Below, piece after piece: positions 2,593 through 24,058 of a stretch of DNA of 24,429 nucleotides. Within the stretch, counting starts at the first letter, position 1. Each line of letters begins with the position of its first letter. Both the position numbers and the translations under genes were made by a program. Below the pieces are notes generated by a model, which saw only the letters and a program-made list of their open reading frames with translations, ran no database searches and had not been told where the DNA came from. Source of the stretch: a virus (Duplodnaviria > Heunggongvirae > Uroviricota > Caudoviricetes); IMG/VR virus record IMGVR_UViG_2526164634_000030, positions 1 through 24,429 of that record; one strand, written 5' to 3'.

Positions 2593-3534
2593 TCAGATAC
2601 CGTCCACATAGGACAGAGTTTCTTTATACACTGGCTCGACTGCACCCAGCTTGCCGTAGTAAGTGACGATCTGATACAGGCCGCGATACTGCACCGGCAC
2701 GCTCTGAAGCGGAACCAGCGGGTAGCGGACGTATTTTTTATCGTTGGTGTACGCAACCATGCGATCCTTATTCCCCACACCACGGCCTTTCAGCCATTTA
2801 ACCGCGCGGATATTCAGCGGAACACCGTTCTGGTGATAGCTGATGGTGTTGGTCTGAAGGTACGTCAACAGGGACTGGTTACCCGCAGATGAAACGATGA
2901 TGCTGGACAACAGAGCAAACTGTTCAGGCGGGATCAGCAAATCACGCGGGACCACAGAGTAACCAGAAGCGGCCCACGCATCAGACAGCACCTGGTTAAT
3001 GCTTGCGCGGATTTCGTCCGGTGTTGAGGTTGCCCACGTTTTGGCAGCGTTGTTGACAGGCACGCCGTCCAGGGTAACAAGGCCTTTCAGGTTTAATGCG
3101 GAATCGCCAACATATACCTGTTCATCGTTATCCATCTGCCATTTCAGTTGCATCCCGTCATACTTCTGCGTATCAATCGGGCGGCCGACCTGCTGAGCAG
3201 CCTGCAATTCTATGACCGTCCAGCCAAGTTCCATCCCCCACAGGTTCAGCGGGTTACCGGATTTGCCGGTATCCACGTTCACGCCAGCAATAGCGGTTGA
3301 GTCTTTGCCTACCCAGTTTTTGCCATTCGGATTTGCACCAGTACCCGCAGCGGCGAAGCTGGTATTCGTCCAGCTGGAAATGTCATCTGCGATAGAGACA
3401 TCTTCACGCAACTGAATATCGCGGGTCCAGGTGTACCCCACCAGTGGCAGGTTCAGCGTCTGGTCGAGTCGCTCCAGCTCCCCGATGAGAAAGGCACCAG
3501 AGCTGTCAACGGTTGCCTGATCAAAAGTAATCAT
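2593..3534 (-). CDS. Major capsid protein (313 aa)
   Basis: Size and position after the portal/MuF/scaffold-like genes; Gly/Asn/Thr-rich composition typical of coat proteins. No family match verified. Confidence 0.55.
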   Translation of the reverse strand: MITFDQATVDSSGAFLIGELERLDQTLNLPLVGYTWTRDIQLREDVSIADDISSWTNTSFAAAGTGANPNGKNWVGKDSTAIAGVNVDTGKSGNPLNLWGMELGWTVIELQAAQQVGRPIDTQKYDGMQLKWQMDNDEQVYVGDSALNLKGLVTLDGVPVNNAAKTWATSTPDEIRASINQVLSDAWAASGYSVVPRDLLIPPEQFALLSSIIVSSAGNQSLLTYLQTNTISYHQNGVPLNIRAVKWLKGRGVGNKDRMVAYTNDKKYVRYPLVPLQSVPVQYRGLYQIVTYYGKLGAVEPVYKETLSYVDGI

Positions 3535-10712: not shown

Positions 10713-11063
10713 TTACTCCTTATGGGCACCGAACTTGTTACCGATGACCCTCATTGCCGCACCACGAATAGCATCAACACCAATCAGCCCCACCCCACCA
10801 CCAATGGCAACAGAAAGTGATTTAGGCCATCCGACATACTCAAGCGCGGATGCAAAGGTCAGCGTCAGAGCACCACAAAGCAGAATCTCAAGCGTTTTTC
10901 GTTTCCAGCCGCCGCCACCGCCAAAATAGGCAATGCGCAAACCAGCCATAATAATTGACATAACCACTGCACCCAGCGGCGTATCTCCACGCCACCAACT
11001 TTGTAAGAGTTCCAGTAAGTCAGGCCAGGAATGAGGGGCATTGTGCATTTTCATAAGCCTCAC
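10713..11063 (-). CDS. Holin, class I-like with three predicted TM segments (116 aa) and a possible dual-start motif
   Basis: Immediately upstream of the endolysin; hydrophobic segments LGAVVMSIIMAGLRIAYF, LEILLCGALTLTFASALEY and SVAIGGGVGLIGVDAI; N-terminus MRLMKMH has Met at codons 1, 4 and 6 separated by basic residues. Confidence 0.65.
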   Translation of the reverse strand: MRLMKMHNAPHSWPDLLELLQSWWRGDTPLGAVVMSIIMAGLRIAYFGGGGGWKRKTLEILLCGALTLTFASALEYVGWPKSLSVAIGGGVGLIGVDAIRGAAMRVIGNKFGAHKE

Positions 11064-11142: not shown

Positions 11143-11178
11143 CCTAACAACGAAAAAGCCCCGGGACATGCCGGGGCC
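11143..11178 (-). terminator. Rho-independent terminator-like hairpin downstream of the moron gene, upstream of holin
   Basis: Stem 11158-11164 (GCCCCGG) pairs with 11171-11177; 6-nt loop; on the minus strand it is followed by TTTTTCGTTGT. Confidence 0.4.
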
Positions 11179-11271
11179 AGATGGAGTGCCAGATTAAGCT
11201 TCTGGCGGTATATACTCGTGTTTGATATCGTTAAATCGCCAAAAGTAACAATTCAAACAAAGAGGATTTTT

Positions 11272-11433
11272 ATGTCTGAAAAAAACAAGCCACAAGGTGA
11301 AAATAAACCTCAGCAACCCGTGGCACCAAAACCAACTCCAACACAAAGTACTGCGGACTTTGCTACACGTCGTGTTTTTGTTGGAGATTCTGCCGACTCA
11401 GTCATTGAACATATAAAAAAACAGCCGAGATAA
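11272..11433 (+). CDS. Small hypothetical protein (53 aa, MSEKNKPQGENKPQQPVAPKPTPTQSTADFATRRVFVGDSADSVIEHIKKQPR)
   Basis: Strong Shine-Dalgarno (AAAGAGGA, 5 nt spacer) before the ATG at 11272; convergent with, and overlapping by about 30 nt, the 3' end of the moron gene. Could be spurious. Confidence 0.25.
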   Translation: MSEKNKPQGENKPQQPVAPKPTPTQSTADFATRRVFVGDSADSVIEHIKKQPR

Positions 11434-11971
11434 ACATCGCCGCTACCGGAGCAAGGATGGTATACATCCTTGCTTTATCGAGACTCGTGCGGATTTTCTC
11501 ATTTTCCAACAGTAACTCTCTTGCTGTATCACTCAAGTCAACAAGGCGATACCTTCGTATAAGCGGCAATAACTTATCAGGTCCTAAATATCCTGCATCA
11601 GCGAATATTTTAAAGCTCGAGGGCTCCATATCCTTATATTTTTCATGATATAGATGATCAGGAGGGGCATTGATCAGGCCCCTAACCTTCACAGATAAAC
11701 CAGTACATACCAAGTAAATGGCGCACCATGTCCATAGTAATGTAAATGTGGTAATTCCGGCGGTGAGAAAATCGAAATTAGTTTTCTGTGTCAGCAATAA
11801 AAAAGATGAGCCAATTCCAACAATCTGAATGTTCAGAAGTTTGTATCCATTCTCAACATTGGTTTTGTTAGAAAGATGAATCTCTCGTATCGTCTCTTCC
11901 CCTTGTTTTTCAAGATAATCGACGAGCTCATCATCTACTCCTAAAAAATAATCTTTAGGTAGTTCTCTCAT
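11402..11971 (-). CDS. AT-rich membrane protein of unknown function (189 aa); moron between tR' and the lysis cassette
   Basis: GGAGGTG SD just before the ATG; markedly lower GC than flanking genes; predicted TM segments (IVGIGSSFLLLTQ, ITTFTLLWTWCAIYLVCTGL, MYTILAPVAAMFISAVFLYVQ); flanked by terminator-like hairpins on both sides. Confidence 0.55.
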   Translation of the reverse strand: MRELPKDYFLGVDDELVDYLEKQGEETIREIHLSNKTNVENGYKLLNIQIVGIGSSFLLLTQKTNFDFLTAGITTFTLLWTWCAIYLVCTGLSVKVRGLINAPPDHLYHEKYKDMEPSSFKIFADAGYLGPDKLLPLIRRYRLVDLSDTARELLLENEKIRTSLDKARMYTILAPVAAMFISAVFLYVQ

Positions 11972-12077
11972 CTCACCTCCACATCCTGTACTGAAAACAA
12001 TTTTACCAGAATGTCTCGATTCTAGGTATTCCGCCAGGAATCGCGCTCCAGAAATGAAACATCAGGTTCGCCAGTAC

Positions 12078-12109
12078 CAGAAACAACAAAACCCGCTCAA
12101 TGGCGGGTT
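12078..12109 (-). terminator. tR'-like rho-independent terminator downstream of the Q-like gene
   Basis: Stem AACCCGC (12090-12096) / GCGGGTT (12103-12109) with 6-nt loop; on the minus strand it is followed by TTTTGTTGTTTCT. The position matches lambda-type pR'-tR' architecture. Confidence 0.5.
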
Positions 12110-12192
12110 CTGGTAAAGTTCATGCGCTTGGTTCGCCTCGCGATACAGCTTTGCGAAGCATACCGGAATTGAAGCAGTTTATGCGTAAAAAA
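12110..12192 (-). promoter_or_regulatory. Probable late promoter (pR'-like) region between Q stop and the tR'-like terminator
   Basis: Inferred from position only; AT-rich with -35/-10-like hexamers on the minus strand (TTGATT ... TTCAAT). Not verifiable from sequence alone. Confidence 0.3.
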
Positions 12193-12735
12193 TCAAGCTA
12201 TTTTTTGAGCAAATGATTCTCGCATGGGAATATATAGGGCATACTCAGCAACAGCCAACCAATTAGCAATTCGCTTTTCGCATGTGCTAAAACACCACTC
12301 AGGATGTGCATCATTTAGCAATTCAGCCATTTTGCGCTTAGTCATCCCCCGTCCTTCATACCGTTGCCGGAGGACACTAATCAATCCAGGATGCTCTGCC
12401 AGCACCTCACTTATGACTCTATCAATACATAACGCCTCTGCATCAGTACAATGCGCCAGCCAGGTCTTTTGCTTGCCATTGATCATCTCTCGCAAAAACG
12501 CTTCCAGCTCAGGTTTCTCTATTCCCGCTTTTTTCATCCTGCGCAGGGCTTCATTGACGGCTGTTTTCGTCAATTTTTTGGATGCCAGCAACTGGTTAAA
12601 CATATTTCCCGTCTTACCGCCGCCAATATACGACCAGCGCCCCCACATGCGCAGTTTTCCCTGAATCCAGACACTTTCCAGCGTGGTGAGACGAAGGTGT
12701 TCCCCGCTTTTGCCTGTATTTGTTGGGTAAATCAT
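12193..12735 (-). CDS. Late-gene antiterminator Q-like protein (about 180 aa from internal start MIYPTNTGKSG)
   Basis: AAGGAAGG SD before the ATG at 12735; LRMWGRWSY motif reminiscent of one Q family; C-terminal HTH-like segment; position immediately upstream of pR'/tR' and the lysis genes. The track ORF (220 aa) is longer and overlaps the upstream gene. Confidence 0.55.
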   Translation of the reverse strand: MIYPTNTGKSGEHLRLTTLESVWIQGKLRMWGRWSYIGGGKTGNMFNQLLASKKLTKTAVNEALRRMKKAGIEKPELEAFLREMINGKQKTWLAHCTDAEALCIDRVISEVLAEHPGLISVLRQRYEGRGMTKRKMAELLNDAHPEWCFSTCEKRIANWLAVAEYALYIPMRESFAQKIA

Positions 12736-14182: not shown

Positions 14183-14338
14183 TTACTTCTCAGATTCGTA
14201 GTCCACGAAGACAGCAACCTCCGTCTGGCCGGTTCGGATTCGTACCTCGCAGAGGTCTTTCCTCGTTACCAGTGCCGTCACTATGACGGTTAAACAGATG
14301 ACGATAAGGGCGATTAACATCGCCTTTTGCTGCTTCAT
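14183..14338 (-). CDS. hok: Hok/Gef-family type I toxin (51 aa, MKQQKAMLIALIVICLTVIVTALVTRKDLCEVRIRTGQTEVAVFVDYESEK)
   Basis: Near-identical to HokD/RelF-type Hok peptides as recalled: single TM helix followed by the conserved CEVRIRTGQTEVAVF motif. The track ORF extends in frame upstream to 14395. Confidence 0.85.
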   Translation of the reverse strand: MKQQKAMLIALIVICLTVIVTALVTRKDLCEVRIRTGQTEVAVFVDYESEK

Positions 14339-14895
14339 AGCCTGCTTCTCCTTGCCTTTCGGCACGTAAGAGGCTAACCTACATTTGTGAGACATAGATT
14401 GGGCCTCAGATTAATGTTAAGCGTCTTGTAGGACGCGTAATGTTAACTGGGGCTTTTCTCTATCTGCCTTTTGGTGTTCATGCCTGAGGCAGATAGCCTC
14501 AAGCACCCGCAGCAATTCTAACTATCCAATAGATCAATGCCAACTTCTTTTCCTGCAACATCTCTCATCATAAGTGACCAAAATTCATCCAATCAGCACA
14601 AAAGAAACATTTAAAGCGTGAATGCTACCGAACGTTCATTTCAATTACATCGTTTTGATTTTTAACAGTTTTTACCTCAACAAATCAAATGGCATTAGCA
14701 TTCATCATGGAAGAAAGACTGATAAAAATGATCATTTTCAATGACTTATGATCACACCGGGTATTGCCAAGTCATTCCTTTTACGCCAGGATACCCACAA
14801 GTGAGTAGTCGAGGAGAGTTTGCCAATTTTTGCGATATAAATTTCAATGTCCGAAGAACCATTAATTGTTAATTGATTCTGTATAAGGTATTAAC

Positions 14896-15525
14896 ATGAC
14901 AATTTCATATATTCCTATTCTGAAAGCGAAACGTTCTGAGTTATCAGCTTTATCGCAGCTATCCATTGAAAAGAAATCAAAAATTTTGCCATTACTCGAA
15001 ATTGAACCAGTGCCAATTGACCCTGATTCAGGTATTGCCTTAAAGAGTTATAACGAGACTCTTATAGAGTTCGGAAAGAAAGTCTCAAAATCTTGCTCAG
15101 ATATGCAAGGTGTTTATATTGATGGATTATTAATTGAAGAGCATTTTATTTCTCCTGAAGATCATTACCCTATAATAAATGCGGTTAATCAAGTTAGAGA
15201 TATGGGGATAAGAGTTATTCCTGTCAGTTCACCAACTCGCCCATCTAACTATAAAGGAGCGATTGATGAATTAATGCAGAATGAAATATGCTTGAGATTA
15301 ACCACGTTAGATCTGGTTAACCCACAATTAATAACGCATTACATTAATCATCTGGGAATTCCTTTATCAAATATTGATATAATTATTGACTTAAGAGATG
15401 AGTTAACCGAGGATAAACTTAATTCCGGCGAACTATATACTTTGGCAATGGGATTGATAAACAATCTGGCGCACCTCAATGAATACAGAAAAGTGATTCT
15501 TTCTGGGGGTTCATTTCCTAGGTAA
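14896..15525 (+). CDS. AT-rich orphan protein of unknown function (209 aa as read; last codons and stop are supplied by the IS1 terminus)
   Basis: AAGG SD about 8 nt before the ATG; long uninterrupted ORF in a strongly AT-biased stretch; Lys/Ile/Asn/Leu-rich; ends ...ILSGGSFPR with Arg and stop read from the first bases of IS1. Confidence 0.5.
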   Translation: MTISYIPILKAKRSELSALSQLSIEKKSKILPLLEIEPVPIDPDSGIALKSYNETLIEFGKKVSKSCSDMQGVYIDGLLIEEHFISPEDHYPIINAVNQVRDMGIRVIPVSSPTRPSNYKGAIDELMQNEICLRLTTLDLVNPQLITHYINHLGIPLSNIDIIIDLRDELTEDKLNSGELYTLAMGLINNLAHLNEYRKVILSGGSFPR

Positions 15526-15535
15526 TGACTCCAAC

Positions 15536-16039
15536 TTATTGATAGTGTTTTATGTTCAGATAATGCCCGATGACTTTGTCATGCAGCTCCACCGATTTTG
15601 AGAACGACAGCGACTTCCGTCCCAGCCGTGCCAGGTGCTGCCTCAGATTCAGGTTATGCCGCTCAATTCGCTGCGTATATCGCTTGCTGATTACGTGCAG
15701 CTTTCCCTTCAGGCGGGATTCATACAGCGGCCAGCCATCCGTCATCCATATCACCACGTCAAAGGGTGACAGCAGGCTCATAAGACGCCCCAGCGTCGCC
15801 ATAGTGCGTTCACCGAATACGTGCGCAACAACCGTCTTCCGGAGCCTGTCATACGCGTAAAACAGCCAGCGCTGGCGCGATTTAGCCCCGACGTATCCCC
15901 ACTGTTCGTCCATTTCCGCGCAGACGATGACGTCACTGCCCGGCTGTATGCGCGAGGTTACCGACTGCGGCCTGAGTTTTTTAAATGGCGGAAAATCGTG
16001 TTGAGGCCAACGCCCATAATGCGGGCGGTTGCCCGGCAT
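15536..16039 (-). CDS. insB: IS1 InsB (167 aa; translated as InsAB' transposase by -1 frameshifting)
   Basis: Matches IS1 InsB as recalled (…[72 protein letters not shown]). Confidence 0.9.
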
Positions 16040-16233
16040 CCAACGCCATTCATGGCCATATCAATGATTTTCTGGTGCGTACCGGGTTGAGAAGCGGTGT
16101 AAGTGAACTGCAGTTGCCATGTTTTACGGCAGTGAGAGCAGAGATAGCGCTGATGTCCGGCGGTGCTTTTGCCGTTACGCACCACCCCGTCAGTAGCTGA
16201 ACAGGAGGGACAGCTGATAGAAACAGAAGCCAC
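15958..16233 (-). CDS. insA: IS1 InsA (91 aa)
   Basis: Matches IS1 InsA as recalled ([43 protein letters not shown]…). Confidence 0.9.
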
Positions 16234-16777
16234 TGGAGCACCTCAAAAACACCATCATACACTAAATCAGTAAGTTGGCAGCATCACCCGATTTCCGAGA
16301 AAAATTCTTGATGAGTTGTTTCTCGCTGCGATCTGATGCTGAAAGCTAAAGCAAGTAGCCAGGCTTTGTCTTTATTATCCATCGGAATACCTTATTACTG
16401 GTTGTGTGAGAACTCCAGTATACCACCGAGCCTGAAGTGGTAAAAAGACAGGCGCACAACACGAAGGCGCATTTCCGGTATTCATAAAGAGTCGGTCTTG
16501 TCTGTTAAATTTAAATGGTGGGAGTGCGCCTCCGGTTGTAAATAACGACATTGCTATGTGTAGTCTTTGGCGGCATCAGTTCTACTCCGTGGCTGCCCTG
16601 TCGCCCCTTTTTAAAGTGAATTTTGTGATGCGGTGAATGCGGCTAAGCGCACGCGGCACAGTTAAAAGCATCAGTGTTATGGGTGGATTATCCGGCGTTA
16701 ATTGTTAACTGGTTAACGTCACCTGGAGGCACCAGGCACCGCATCGACAAAATTCATTTGTAAAAATGGAGATAATT

Positions 16778-21890: not shown

Positions 21891-22085
21891 ATGCGGTATG
21901 AAAAAGTCAAACCATGTCCGTTTTGTGGTTGTCCATCAGTAACGGTGAAAGCCATTTCAGGATATTACCGCGCAAAGTGTAACGGATGCGAATCCCGAAC
22001 CGGCTATAGTGGAAGTGAAAAAGAAGCACTCGAAAGATGGAATAAACGAACTACTGGAAATAATAATGGAGGTGTTCATGTATAA
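21891..22085 (+). CDS. ralR: RalR/Lar restriction-alleviation protein (64 aa from MRYEKVKPCPFCGCPSV)
   Basis: Near-identical to Rac Lar/RalR as recalled, including the CPFCGC…CNGC Cys cluster and the C-terminal WNKRTTGNNNGGVHV. Confidence 0.8.
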   Translation: MRYEKVKPCPFCGCPSVTVKAISGYYRAKCNGCESRTGYSGSEKEALERWNKRTTGNNNGGVHV

Positions 22086-22266
22086 AATTACTGCCACTAT
22101 TGAAAAGGAAGGTGGCACTCCTACTAACTGGACAAGATATTCAAAATCTAAATTAACGAAATCAGAATGCGAAAAAATGCTCTCAGGGAAAAAAGAAGCA
22201 GGCGTTTCCAGAGAGCAGAAAGTAAAGCTGATAAATTTTAATTGCGAGAAACTTCTGTCCTCGTGA
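22078..22266 (+). CDS. ydaC: YdaC-like small protein (62 aa from MYKITATIEKEGG)
   Basis: GGAGG SD 5 nt before the ATG, which overlaps the ralR stop; position matches Rac gene order. Start could alternatively be 22066. Confidence 0.5.
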   Translation: MYKITATIEKEGGTPTNWTRYSKSKLTKSECEKMLSGKKEAGVSREQKVKLINFNCEKLLSS

Positions 22267-22366: not shown

Positions 22367-22654
22367 ATGGCAATGAATCTTGTGACACTCAAAACGTGGG
22401 GAAAACTCAGATATCCGGATAACCCACCATCAATATCAACGCTGAGACGATGGGCAAGGAATGGAAACATTTATCCTGCACCTGAACTACACGGGAGGAG
22501 TTACAGGGTGGTTCCGGAGGCTTTCTATATCAACCCAAATAAGGTTGATACCGATATAACACACCATCAGCCTAATGGGCGACAAGGGAGAGACAGTCCG
22601 TTACTGGAGAAGTTAAAACATGCAGCGGAAAAAATACGATCCCAATTTGCCTAA
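22367..22654 (+). CDS. xis: Excisionase-like DNA-binding protein (95 aa)
   Basis: Immediately upstream of and overlapping the integrase gene by about 35 nt; small basic protein with Xis/AlpA-like features (…SISTLRRWARNGNIYPAPELHGRSYRV…). Confidence 0.6.
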   Translation: MAMNLVTLKTWGKLRYPDNPPSISTLRRWARNGNIYPAPELHGRSYRVVPEAFYINPNKVDTDITHHQPNGRQGRDSPLLEKLKHAAEKIRSQFA

Positions 22655-23696
22655 AAACTTAACATATCGAAGGAGGGACAAAGCATATTACTGGCGCAAC
22701 CCTCTGACGAAAGAAGAATTTACACTAGGTAAAATTTCAAGAAGAGATGCAGTAGCGCAGGCAATTGAAGCAAATCATTATATATACAAAAACTACTCTC
22801 CTGCTGCCTTAATTGAAAAGCTTAAAGGGTTCGACTCATTTACTATGGCAGACTGGATTGAACGTTACAAAACGATTCTTATAAGGAGAAAAGTGTCCAG
22901 AAATACTTATAAAATTCGGGTAAATCAACTGGAGACAATAAAAGAAAAATTGGGAGAGATTTTACTGACAGAAATAACCACTCGCCATATTGCCGAGTTT
23001 CTTGATTTGTGGATTGAAGGAGGGAAAAACACAATGGCAGGATCAATGCGTTCTGTGTTGTCTGATATGTTTCGTGAGGCCATTGTTGAAGGACGTATAT
23101 CTCAAAATCCAGTAACACCAACAAGAGCACCGAAAATAGTAGTTACAAGAGAACGACTGAAACTAAAGACATACAACTGCATCAGGGAGGCAGCAGATCA
23201 ACTTCCGGCATGGTTCCCATTAGCTATGGATTTAGCCCTTGTAACAGGACAACGTCGCGAAGACATAACGAATATGCGGTTTAGTGATATTTATGATGAT
23301 CGTCTCCACATCAGGCAAATTAAGACAGGAATGATGATTGCTATCCCCCTGTCACTCAGCCTTCCTGTCGCTGGTCTACGGCTTGGTACAGTAGTTGAAC
23401 AGTGCCGCCTGGTAAGCCGGGGAGATTATCTAATCAGTGCCGGGATTAGAAAAAACAGCCCTGACGGCAGCATTCACCCGGATGGCCTGACAAAAAAATT
23501 TGTCGCAGCCAGAAAATTAACAGGTATCCAGTTCAGTGAAAACCCACCAACTTTTCACGAGATCAGAAGTCTGGCTGGACGATTGTACAAAGAAACATGT
23601 GGAGAAGAATTTGCTCAGCGTCTACTTGGCCACACATCGGAGAAGACAACAAAAATGTACCTTGATGAGAGAGAAAAAACGTACGTACTGCTCTGA
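22620..23696 (+). CDS. int: Tyrosine integrase, lambda Int family (358 aa)
   Basis: Aligns by eye with lambda Int along its length: N-terminal arm-binding region (…NLxYRRxxxYYWRxPxTxxEFxLG…), …LAMxLAxVTGQRxxD…, and C-terminal …FHExRSLxxRLYxxxxxxxFAQxLLGHxSxxxxxxY… with the catalytic Tyr. Confidence 0.9.
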
Positions 23697-23760: not shown

Positions 23761-23827
23761 AGAAATTCGAGTAAATTTCGGGGAATTTCGGGGAGACGTT
23801 TACAACTGATTGATTTTAAATACAATT

Positions 23828-23929
23828 AAAAAAGACCGAATACGATTCCTGTATTCGGTCCAGGGAAATGGCTCTTGGGAGAGAGCCGTGCGCTAAAAGT
23901 TGGCATTAATGCAGGCTTAGTTGCCTTGC
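23828..23929 (-). ncRNA. sdsR: SdsR (RyeB) small regulatory RNA
   Basis: The reverse complement reads GCAAGGCAACTAAGCCTGCATTAATGCCAACTTTTAGCGCACGGCTCTCTCCCAAGAGCCATTTCCCTGGACCGAATACAGGAATCGTATTCGGTCTTTTTT, matching the SdsR sequence as I recall it, including the terminal hairpin and U-tract. Confidence 0.7.
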
Positions 23930-24058
23930 CCTTTAAGAATAGATGACGACGCCAGGTTTTCCAGTTTGCGTGCAAAATGGTCAATAAAAAGCGTGGTGGT
24001 CATCAGCTGAAATGTTAAAAACCGCCCGTTCTGGTGAAAGAACTGAGGCGGTTTTTTT
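23831..24058 (+). ncRNA. ryeA: RyeA (SraC)-like antisense sRNA overlapping sdsR (boundaries approximate)
   Basis: Inferred: a promoter-like TTTACA-N16-TACAAT at about 23797-23824 on the plus strand, full antisense overlap of sdsR, and a bidirectional terminator at 24016-24058. Ends not verifiable without transcript data. Confidence 0.4.
24016..24058. terminator. Bidirectional rho-independent terminator between ryeA and yebY
   Basis: AAAAACCGCC…GGCGGTTTTTTT inverted repeat with an internal GTTCT…AGAAC sub-stem; A/T-runs on both sides. Confidence 0.45.

Follow-up and report, generated by a model that had tools for sequence, protein, structure and literature searches.

A conserved convergent two-gene cargo cassette between the antiterminator and holin genes of a defective lambdoid Escherichia coli prophage

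In the definition of Hendrix and Juhala, a moron is a piece of extra DNA in a phage genome that has a deviant GC content, a promoter of its own that is active in the repressed prophage and a terminator of its own (PMC3594210). Here we describe a locus that resembles such units and departs from them in its design. It lies in the 24,429-nucleotide (nt) viral record IMGVR_UViG_2526164634_000030 (Caudoviricetes), which was analysed over its full length and is called the window below. The segment from ~11143 to 12076 is a self-contained two-gene cargo cassette of ~0.9 kb in a defective Rac-like lambdoid prophage of Escherichia coli, positioned between the late antiterminator gene Q and the holin gene S (the Q-to-S slot). 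It contains a gene for a predicted inner-membrane protein of 189 amino acids (aa), here the large gene, and a convergent gene for a 53-aa hydrophilic protein, here the small gene. Both genes are real, and the pair is conserved as a pair across prophages of the Gammaproteobacteria.

The cassette shares several properties with the morons of HK97 and HK022, of which HK97 gene 15 is an example, and with stx-type Q-to-S cargo: it is extra DNA of odd GC content, it carries a promoter-like element and a terminator, and it sits in a variable slot just past the terminator tR'. Of the traits in the moron definition, the extra DNA, the GC difference and the terminator are all present, and the putative promoters are recurring −10-like motifs, that of the large gene having no −35 element. 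HK97 gp15 is an inner-membrane protein, as the large protein is predicted to be. Whereas the HK97 gene 15 moron is one promoter–gene–terminator unit, the cassette consists of two convergent, overlapping genes, and the large protein, in contrast to gp15/YebO, to which it has no sequence relationship, would expose almost nothing to the periplasm.

Three other classes of described system provide useful comparisons. The type I toxin–antitoxin systems txpA/RatA and bsrG/SR4 of Bacillus subtilis prophages are made of convergent transcripts that overlap at their 3' ends. The cassette is similar in that a prophage-borne membrane-protein gene is opposed by a 3'-overlapping convergent transcript, with no terminator found between the two; it differs in that its toxin candidate is a 189-aa protein with predicted cytoplasmic domains and in that the convergent transcript codes for a conserved protein kept by purifying selection. 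Of the hallmarks of type I systems, the convergent 3' overlap was found in the cassette, and a short-peptide toxin and a non-coding antitoxin were not. Lambda RexA/RexB and P22 SieB/Esc, both of them abortive-infection pairs linked to the membrane and equipped with an antagonist, likewise combine a prophage inner-membrane component with a second product that might govern how active it is. RexB has four transmembrane (TM) segments, and its partner RexA is large and cytosolic; lambda rexAB stands beside cI, as does one distant relative of the cassette, which adjoins a cI operon. Gene orientation and overlap differ between the cassette and both of these systems, RexAB being set apart by description only. 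Finally, the face-to-face promoters pR and pL of coliphage 186, of which the stronger silences the weaker, offer a precedent for the transcriptional interference that we infer for the cassette and for its possible coupling to developmental stage. Unlike pR and pL, the two putative cassette promoters are separated by ~770 bp that include two coding regions, and they would serve cargo rather than a lysis–lysogeny switch. The features of the cassette and its borders are as follows.

12087..12112, − strand: tR'-like intrinsic terminator, 81–106 nt past the Q stop codon, flanking the cassette (terminator scan).
12000..12008, − strand: promoter-like extended −10 element of the large gene, TGgTAAAAT, with the hexamer TAAAAT at 12005–12000 (putative, from its recurrence across genera).
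11972..11980, − strand: Shine–Dalgarno sequence of the large gene, GGAGGTGAG (read directly from the sequence).
11402..11971, − strand: large gene, encoding a predicted inner-membrane protein of 189 aa, WP_001208722.1, PHROG 11870 (family, conserved residues, AlphaFold (AF2) model, purifying selection, hydropathy and charge).
Within the large protein, in order: acidic, predicted cytoplasmic N-terminal helix (residues 1–45); TM1 with the motif IVGIGSSF; TM2; basic, predicted cytoplasmic segment (93–168); TM3.
11272..11433, + strand: small gene, encoding a 53-aa hydrophilic, proline-rich protein, MSEKNKPQGENKPQQP...RRVFVGDSAD...KKQPR (PHROG 14506, pairing with the large gene, ATG with Shine–Dalgarno sequence, codon substitution pattern).
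11221..11252, + strand: conserved element, putative promoter and leader of the small gene, TGaTATCGT (11223–11231) followed by TAAATCGCCAAAAGTAAC (cross-locus conservation).
11188..11206, no strand assigned: conserved stem-loop GCCAGA-N7-TCTGGC, between the downstream terminator and the putative small-gene promoter.
11147..11178, − strand: intrinsic terminator in the direction of the large gene, stem 11178–11157 plus T-run, ~225–245 nt past the large-gene stop codon.

The large open reading frame (ORF) has 189 codons and runs along the − strand of the window from an ATG at 11971–11969, which is preceded by GGAGG (11980–11976) at a spacing of 4 nt. Its GC content is 39.1%, and that of the cassette 41.4%, compared with 47.1% for Q, 51.3% for the holin gene and 48.5% for the window overall. 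When 5.8 billion proteins were searched, its product yielded 104 clusters, nearly all of 189 aa and at least 42% identical, from Escherichia, Citrobacter, Klebsiella, Serratia, Yersinia, Pantoea, Providencia, Proteus, Morganella and other genera. A profile search of 1.84 billion representatives broadened the family to 104 half-identity clusters, most of them 160–200 aa long. In pairwise codon analysis the nonsynonymous substitution rate (dN) is far below the synonymous rate (dS) in every pair. Because its length is kept in dozens of Enterobacterales clusters and dN is so much lower than dS, the large ORF is not a chance reading frame.

The small gene, which faces the large one and overlaps the last 32 nt of its ORF, changes the interpretation of the locus. 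A sequence-only reading had described the cargo as a single autonomous moron gene; the cargo unit stands, but the convergent partner at 11272–11433 (+) had gone unseen, and the unit is not a single gene. The full product is MSEKNKPQGENKPQQPVAPKPTPTQSTADFATRRVFVGDSADSVIEHIKKQPR, a predicted cytoplasmic protein with a basic tail, for which AlphaFold predicts an extended or disordered chain (predicted template modelling score 0.22) with one short helix at residues 42–49. The small ORF begins with an ATG behind a Shine–Dalgarno sequence at each of the nine Enterobacterales loci tested. Outside the overlap its dN is well below dS, with dN/dS of 0.04–0.5 where estimable. The small proteins share a proline-rich N-terminus, MS-x-x-(N/K)KP...KPQ(Q)P, and the motif R-x-x-(V/I)GDSA(D/E), and insertions and deletions among them are in frame. 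A profile search found 68 clusters, mostly of 46–57 aa and from the same taxa as the large protein. The Prokaryotic Genome Annotation Pipeline (PGAP) instead starts this gene at a GTG at 11218, for a product of 71 aa (WP_071779784.1); this model is probably too long. A coding role for the additional upstream element was rejected, as the element is conserved as nucleotides across different reading frames.

The pairing of the two genes extends well beyond E. coli. Wherever the large gene is intact and the adjoining DNA readable, a convergent small ORF was found, down to ~20% identity: in the window and at loci L003–L017, L022, L035, L036, L038–L041 and L043–L046, where the L numbers denote the loci compared. 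The arrangement is present in Citrobacter, Serratia, Pantoea, Trabulsiella and Yersinia, on a 47.7-kb E. coli plasmid record with phage genes, on a Pasteurella replicon and in metagenomic relatives of 20–30% identity. A scan of genome contigs with a closer alignment of the large protein yielded eight loci. The two ORFs overlap by 20–32 nt in Enterobacterales; in distant relatives they overlap by 21–34 nt or directly abut. Every locus examined for the large-protein family has a prophage-like context. This conservation of gene arrangement far past the limit of sequence similarity suggests that the arrangement has a regulatory logic.

Within E. coli the region is widespread at low frequency. The window DNA is 98–100% identical to E. 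coli prophages, and at least 80% of the region is present in 223 of 5,426 complete E. coli genomes (~4%). Among phage records the carriers number 5 of 50,697, and four induced phage isolates from E. coli contain the region.

Family scans place neither protein in a functionally described group. RefSeq labels WP_001208722.1 a hypothetical protein, and the only family match of the large protein is PHROG 11870; the small protein matches PHROG 14506, and both families are annotated 'unknown function'. Neither protein has a match in Pfam, NCBIfam or PADLOC, and Pfam and PHROG scans of 70 distant members of the large family gave only scattered weak matches to TM families. Membership of the SLATT or PycTM families of Pfam, which comprise suicide effectors with two TM segments, was not found: PycTM matched 1 of the 70 members, at E = 0.016, and SLATT none. 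A 70-member profile of the large family compared with P22 SieA and SieB (hhalign) gave probabilities of 0.2% and 0.1%, and Pfam SieB was not matched. The large protein also falls outside the holins and antiholins, as it has no lysis match in Pfam, NCBIfam or PHROG and its C-terminus is predicted to end inside or just past TM3. No study of the large-protein family came up in literature searches on the accessions, its PHROG identifier and related ideas; a paper on HepS was considered and is unrelated to the cassette.

The AF2 model of the large protein, built from a 43-sequence alignment, has a mean predicted local distance difference test score of 83.6 and contains three long helices (residues 14–62, 68–92 and 134–188). 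Hydropathy and charge analysis identifies uncharged stretches at 46–62, 68–92 and 169–188, and these are the predicted membrane spans TM1, TM2 and TM3. Residues 1–45 are soluble, as is the 76-residue segment between the second and third spans, for a total of ~120 soluble residues. TM1 and TM2 are separated by a loop of 5 residues, and a single residue follows TM3. Residues 93–168 include 14 lysines and arginines. From this charge distribution and the positive-inside rule we infer that the topology is N-in, C-out, which would place both soluble parts in the cytoplasm and almost nothing in the periplasm. Conservation is concentrated in the acidic N-terminal helix (F9, D13, D14, E21 and E25) and in the Gly/Ser motif IVGIGSSF of TM1, where G52, G54, S55 and S56 are invariant or nearly so. 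Further conserved residues are W80, P104, L107–Y108 and R139–R140.

For the large gene, the expectations raised by the sequence-only reading are largely borne out. The ORF is where it was placed and of the size given, with the low GC content and strong Shine–Dalgarno sequence reported above; a soluble N-terminal region followed by several hydrophobic segments is roughly what hydropathy and the AF2 model indicate; and the statement that no family could be recognised agrees with the absence of matches in Pfam, NCBIfam, PADLOC, the PDB and comparisons with SieA and SieB, PHROG 11870 being the sole exception. The ORF proved to be kept in related prophages, and Pfam, NCBIfam and PHROG scans detected no homology of the large protein to known lysis accessory proteins.

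The terminator scan found exactly two sites on the − strand of the interval, with stems at 12112–12087 and 11178–11157, each followed by a T-run. The upstream terminator ends ~113 nt past the Q stop codon, a layout like that of P22, where the annotated late promoter and tR' take up the first 136 nt after the stop codon of gene 23. Homology with many cassette-free E. coli prophages that have a related DUF1133 Q spans this terminator and stops at ~12077–12088. Because the homology runs through it, we assign the terminator to the Q/late-promoter unit and not to the cargo. The tR'-like terminator of the sequence-only reading is therefore present, but it is not part of the autonomous cargo unit to which it had been allotted. 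The hairpin that was noticed downstream was recovered by the scan as the second site, and it belongs to the cassette: in a seven-locus alignment that includes Trabulsiella, compensatory changes occur in most of its stem pairs and the U-run is kept. Terminators stand at a comparable distance of ~220–245 nt past the large-gene stop in Serratia (L007, L016) and Yersinia (L017). The scan detected no terminator between the large and small genes, and an Rfam scan of the cassette matched no RNA family.

A promoter-like element precedes each gene. That of the large gene lies 28 nt before the ATG and would give a leader of ~22 nt. The motif (A/G)GGTAA(A/G)AT recurs 35–45 nt before the ATG in E. coli, Citrobacter, Serratia and Trabulsiella loci with differing flanks, and distant relatives have AGGTATAAT or CAGTATAAT in that place. 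Upstream of the small gene, all enterobacterial loci contain TGnTAT(C/T/G)GT followed by TAAATCGCCA(G/A)AA, irrespective of reading frame. We read this element as a putative extended −10, since its varying positions are those least critical in a −10 hexamer. It is 96.9% identical between the window and locus L035, although the large proteins of the two are just 53% identical. In Pasteurellaceae relatives, a near-consensus TTGNCA-17-TATAAT takes its place. The TCTGA motif before the small gene was also considered as a sigma-E element, an idea that was dropped for want of a GGAACTT −35. LexA boxes were sought in the enterobacterial cassette promoters and not found. In L041, a metagenomic distant homologue, a near-consensus LexA box (ACTGTATGGACATACAGT, 340–355 of that locus) lies 26–41 nt before the large-gene ATG.

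The stem-loop at 11188–11206 occupies the place that a small-gene −35 would take and lies in the 3' untranslated region of the large gene. A stem is kept at this position in Serratia and Yersinia, and Trabulsiella loci have GCCGC...GCGGC instead. From this layout, a large-gene transcript ending at 11157 would include the complement of the entire small gene, and transcription from the small gene would in turn read into the large gene in antisense orientation.

The neighbours of the cassette define its slot. Upstream, the gene at 12193–12735 (−) matches DUF1133 (2.8e-109) and, weakly, Phage_antitermQ. Downstream, the gene at 10713–11054/11063 (−) belongs to the lambda holin family (PF05106, 2.1e-27; TIGR01594, 5.1e-41) and has its own dual-start MKM motif; an endolysin gene and Rz/Rz1-like genes come next. 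The sequence-only reading had recognised cargo between tR' and the holin gene, and a survey of the Q-to-S interval agrees: prophages with a related Q carry in the same slot a tRNA-Gly and a tRNA-Thr, two TolA-like genes, or an ORF6N gene together with another convergent pair, whose products have 92 and 76 aa, and a tellurite/colicin-resistance-like protein is also among the same-slot cargo. tRNA genes are known in the Q-to-S regions of Stx phages. At Citrobacter loci L003–L006 (5773–6364), frames between the cassette and the holin gene look like tRNA genes, as judged from translations only.

One of these prophages illustrates how cargo may be exchanged. In E. coli PK8241 (L025), the 92-aa and 76-aa genes form a convergent, 3'-overlapping pair at 2873–3367, neither product having a Pfam match. 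Homology with the window extends from the holin gene to 11256 at 98.6% identity, so that the terminator, the stem-loop and the putative small-gene promoter element are kept in front of another gene. This layout suggests that cassettes are exchanged at the promoter element and that a forward gene plus an opposing gene may be a recurring design. The promoter-plus-terminator element is present in 254 E. coli genomes, compared with 223 that have the whole region. A 114-nt tR' segment (window 12077–12190) is reused in L025 and L035. At both of these loci an ORF6N-domain gene (L025 3505–4062, L035 3218–3799) stands between Q and the segment, which adjoins Q directly in the window. For the DUF1133-type Q, either pR' lies inside the 114-nt segment or the ORF6N gene was inserted between promoter and terminator.

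Enterobacterales cassettes follow three antiterminator families (DUF1133, PF03589 and PF06530) and precede several holin and endolysin types. Recombination among lambdoid phages that preserves synteny would account for their constant position between Q and the holin gene. One distant relative, the L041 homologue with the LexA-box-like sequence, adjoins cI-like repressor, cro and cII genes, with its small gene co-directional with cI; another follows the early genes AAA_24 and Sipho_Gp157 near an AlpA-type excisionase gene. Because these relatives sit at the cI region or among early genes, the late position is not obligatory, and the module appears portable and not tied to lysis.

Inactivated copies of the large gene are common in E. 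coli. Intact alleles are represented by 245 member sequences, and 102 have IS3 inserted at codon 171, with loss of the last predicted span. A second disrupted form has a 1-nt deletion with a frameshift at codon 103, and locus L018 is frameshifted as well. Beside a disrupted large gene, the small gene was intact in each case with readable adjoining DNA, at the frameshifted loci and in Leclercia. In this small sample, we saw no intact large gene whose small partner was broken, an asymmetry that gives a faint, indirect hint of a toxin–antitoxin relationship. These inactivating alleles recur in E. coli and E. marmotae: the left end of IS3 lies at ~3012 onward in L032/L033, and the 1-nt deletion lies at ~2808 in L028–L031.

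The prophage that carries the cassette has itself been damaged. A copy of IS1 at 15521–16278 (InsA 15958–16233, InsB 15536–16039) stands in place of ~6.3 kb present in E. coli FDAARGOS_1059, where that segment contains repressor-region helix–turn–helix genes, ydaT, ydaV, DUF1627, DUF977 and sce7726-family genes. The insertion truncates a 'beta family protein' gene (14896–15525) to 209 codons; the beta/sce7726 pair is intact in FDAARGOS_1059 and broken in the window. Because IS1 replaces this segment, the prophage is defective and lacks its immunity and replication region. Other small elements were noted in the window. A hok/sok type I toxin–antitoxin locus lies between nin-like genes and the truncated beta-family gene, with the Hok ORF at 14183–14338 (−) and the Rfam sok match at 14333–14508 (−, 121.7 bits). 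Rfam also matches DicF on the + strand and RalA, the RalR antitoxin RNA, on the − strand; together with SraC/RyeA and SdsR/RyeB, these matches account for the ranges 16555–16606, 22084–22262 and 23824–23967. The overlapping SraC/RyeA–SdsR/RyeB pair lies beyond the integrase gene (22620–23696), probably in the chromosomal flank of the prophage.

What the cassette does can be addressed through its design. The sequence-only reading put forward superinfection exclusion, abortive infection and lysis timing as candidate roles. We tentatively favour, at somewhat less than even odds, a reading in which the large protein is a membrane effector and the small protein, its transcript or both act as antidote or regulator, the benefit being exclusion, abortive infection or addiction and not lysis. 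Because their transcripts must overlap, the two genes should antagonise each other, both by interfering with each other's transcription and by antisense pairing. The small-gene promoter should dominate in a lysogen, in keeping with the one distant relative whose small gene reads in the direction of the cI operon. Strong Q-antiterminated late transcription would then sweep through the cassette, so that the membrane protein would be made and the small gene silenced; in the one relative with a LexA-box promoter, release of LexA would have an equivalent effect. A more doubtful extension of this proposal is that induction, through Q-dependent late transcription or LexA release, flips the cassette from antidote to membrane effector by convergent transcription, and that cassettes of this kind form an unrecognised class of prophage switch. 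A lysis-specific role appears less likely, because distant relatives adjoin cI/cro/cII or early genes, and a periplasm-facing block to DNA entry appears less likely because nearly none of the large protein is predicted to be periplasmic.

Several observations count against a membrane effector with an antidote. Homology searches returned nothing that points to toxicity, permeabilisation, exclusion or an interaction between the large and small proteins. PADLOC-DB v2 defence models did not match either protein at E ≤ 1. Profile searches of PDB sequences found nothing significant, and sequence and fold searches returned generic long-helix (BAR-like) matches only. A consensus promoter scan called neither putative promoter, and the large-gene element is without a good −35. 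The asymmetric loss of the two genes was seen in a small sample, outside which lie the partners of two truncated small-gene variants. All enterobacterial loci are in the Q-to-holin slot, which leaves room for a connection with late expression. The chief difficulty is that a depolarising toxin, if produced from the late transcript at a time when the antidote is silenced, could trigger the holin early, at a cost to the phage.

One alternative that we regard as unlikely is that the large protein is a lysis-timing or late-phase accessory, encoded by the first ORF of the Q-dependent transcript and modulating permeabilisation, with the antisense small gene serving only to repress it during lysogeny. 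All the Enterobacterales and Pasteurella loci examined lie just past a tR'-like terminator, most of them directly before the lysis cassette whatever the Q or holin family; the large gene has a strong Shine–Dalgarno sequence and a predicted membrane product, and late transcription would inevitably bring about its expression and work against the small gene. Yet the cassette is missing from most related phages, as the counts among phage records and E. coli genomes indicate, and the holins alongside it are of unrelated classes (lambda S, P21 type and others). Antiholins are normally holin-specific. The neighbouring holin gene, moreover, already has its dual-start motif, distant relatives occupy the immunity region or stand among early genes, and the cassette has its own promoter-like element, terminator and low GC content and matches no holin or lysis model. 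It is similarly improbable that the large protein is a classical single-protein superinfection exclusion factor that blocks entry of an incoming genome at the inner membrane in the manner of HK97 gp15, P22 SieA or T4 Imm, the small gene being incidental. The partner gene is under purifying selection and kept wherever this can be checked, which argues that it is not incidental, and the predicted periplasmic exposure amounts to a 5-residue loop and one C-terminal residue, the conserved surfaces being cytoplasmic or intramembrane; nor does the family have profile similarity to SieA or SieB. These points outweigh, in our view, the resemblance to the HK97 gp15 moron, whose inner-membrane product likewise comes with its own promoter-like element and terminator (PMC3594210), and the AT-rich, prophage-confined nature of the large gene.

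A contribution to host physiology by lysogenic conversion, for instance to envelope stress tolerance, transport or cell division with the small protein as regulator, would fit the functional diversity of same-slot cargo (tRNAs, TolA-like and tellurite/colicin-resistance-like proteins), the lack of defence-model matches and the persistence of the cassette in a defective prophage after the IS1-associated loss of its immunity region. We give it only a small chance: the large-protein family occurs only in prophage-like contexts at the loci examined, frequent disrupted alleles argue against a strong host benefit, and a convergent design kept to ~20% identity suggests a tightly controlled, potentially harmful activity. 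The least probable of the alternatives is a type I-like toxin–antitoxin system in which the antagonist is an antisense RNA from the small-gene promoter and the small ORF is secondary. Convergent 3'-overlapping units are the layout of txpA/RatA and bsrG/SR4, no terminator separates the genes, and the overlap is kept in most relatives; but the small ORF has dN well below dS outside the overlap, a conserved ATG and Shine–Dalgarno sequence, the (V/I)GDSA(D/E) motif and in-frame indels, and the putative toxin has 189 aa rather than being a peptide of <60 aa, with no Rfam match at the locus.

The cassette is thus prophage cargo of the Q-to-S slot with an unusual, conserved two-gene design. If it confers no phenotype, it is an ordinary hypothetical moron. 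Prophage cargo is, however, a main source of new exclusion, abortive-infection and toxin–antidote mechanisms, and this cassette is a good candidate: it is compact and easily cloned, and it is present in ~4% of complete E. coli genomes and in many prophages of Enterobacterales and Pasteurellaceae, annotated just as 'hypothetical'. If the large protein is a membrane effector kept in check by the small protein or an antisense transcript, the locus would be an example of convergent transcription that couples cargo expression to prophage induction. A switch cassette, if the more doubtful extension proves true, would provide membrane activity at a particular stage, be it exclusion, abortive infection or host shut-down, by a mechanism unlike those of the Sie, Rex, holin and toxin–antitoxin families. 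An effector controlled by the small protein or by an antisense transcript would represent a new family of prophage conflict systems.

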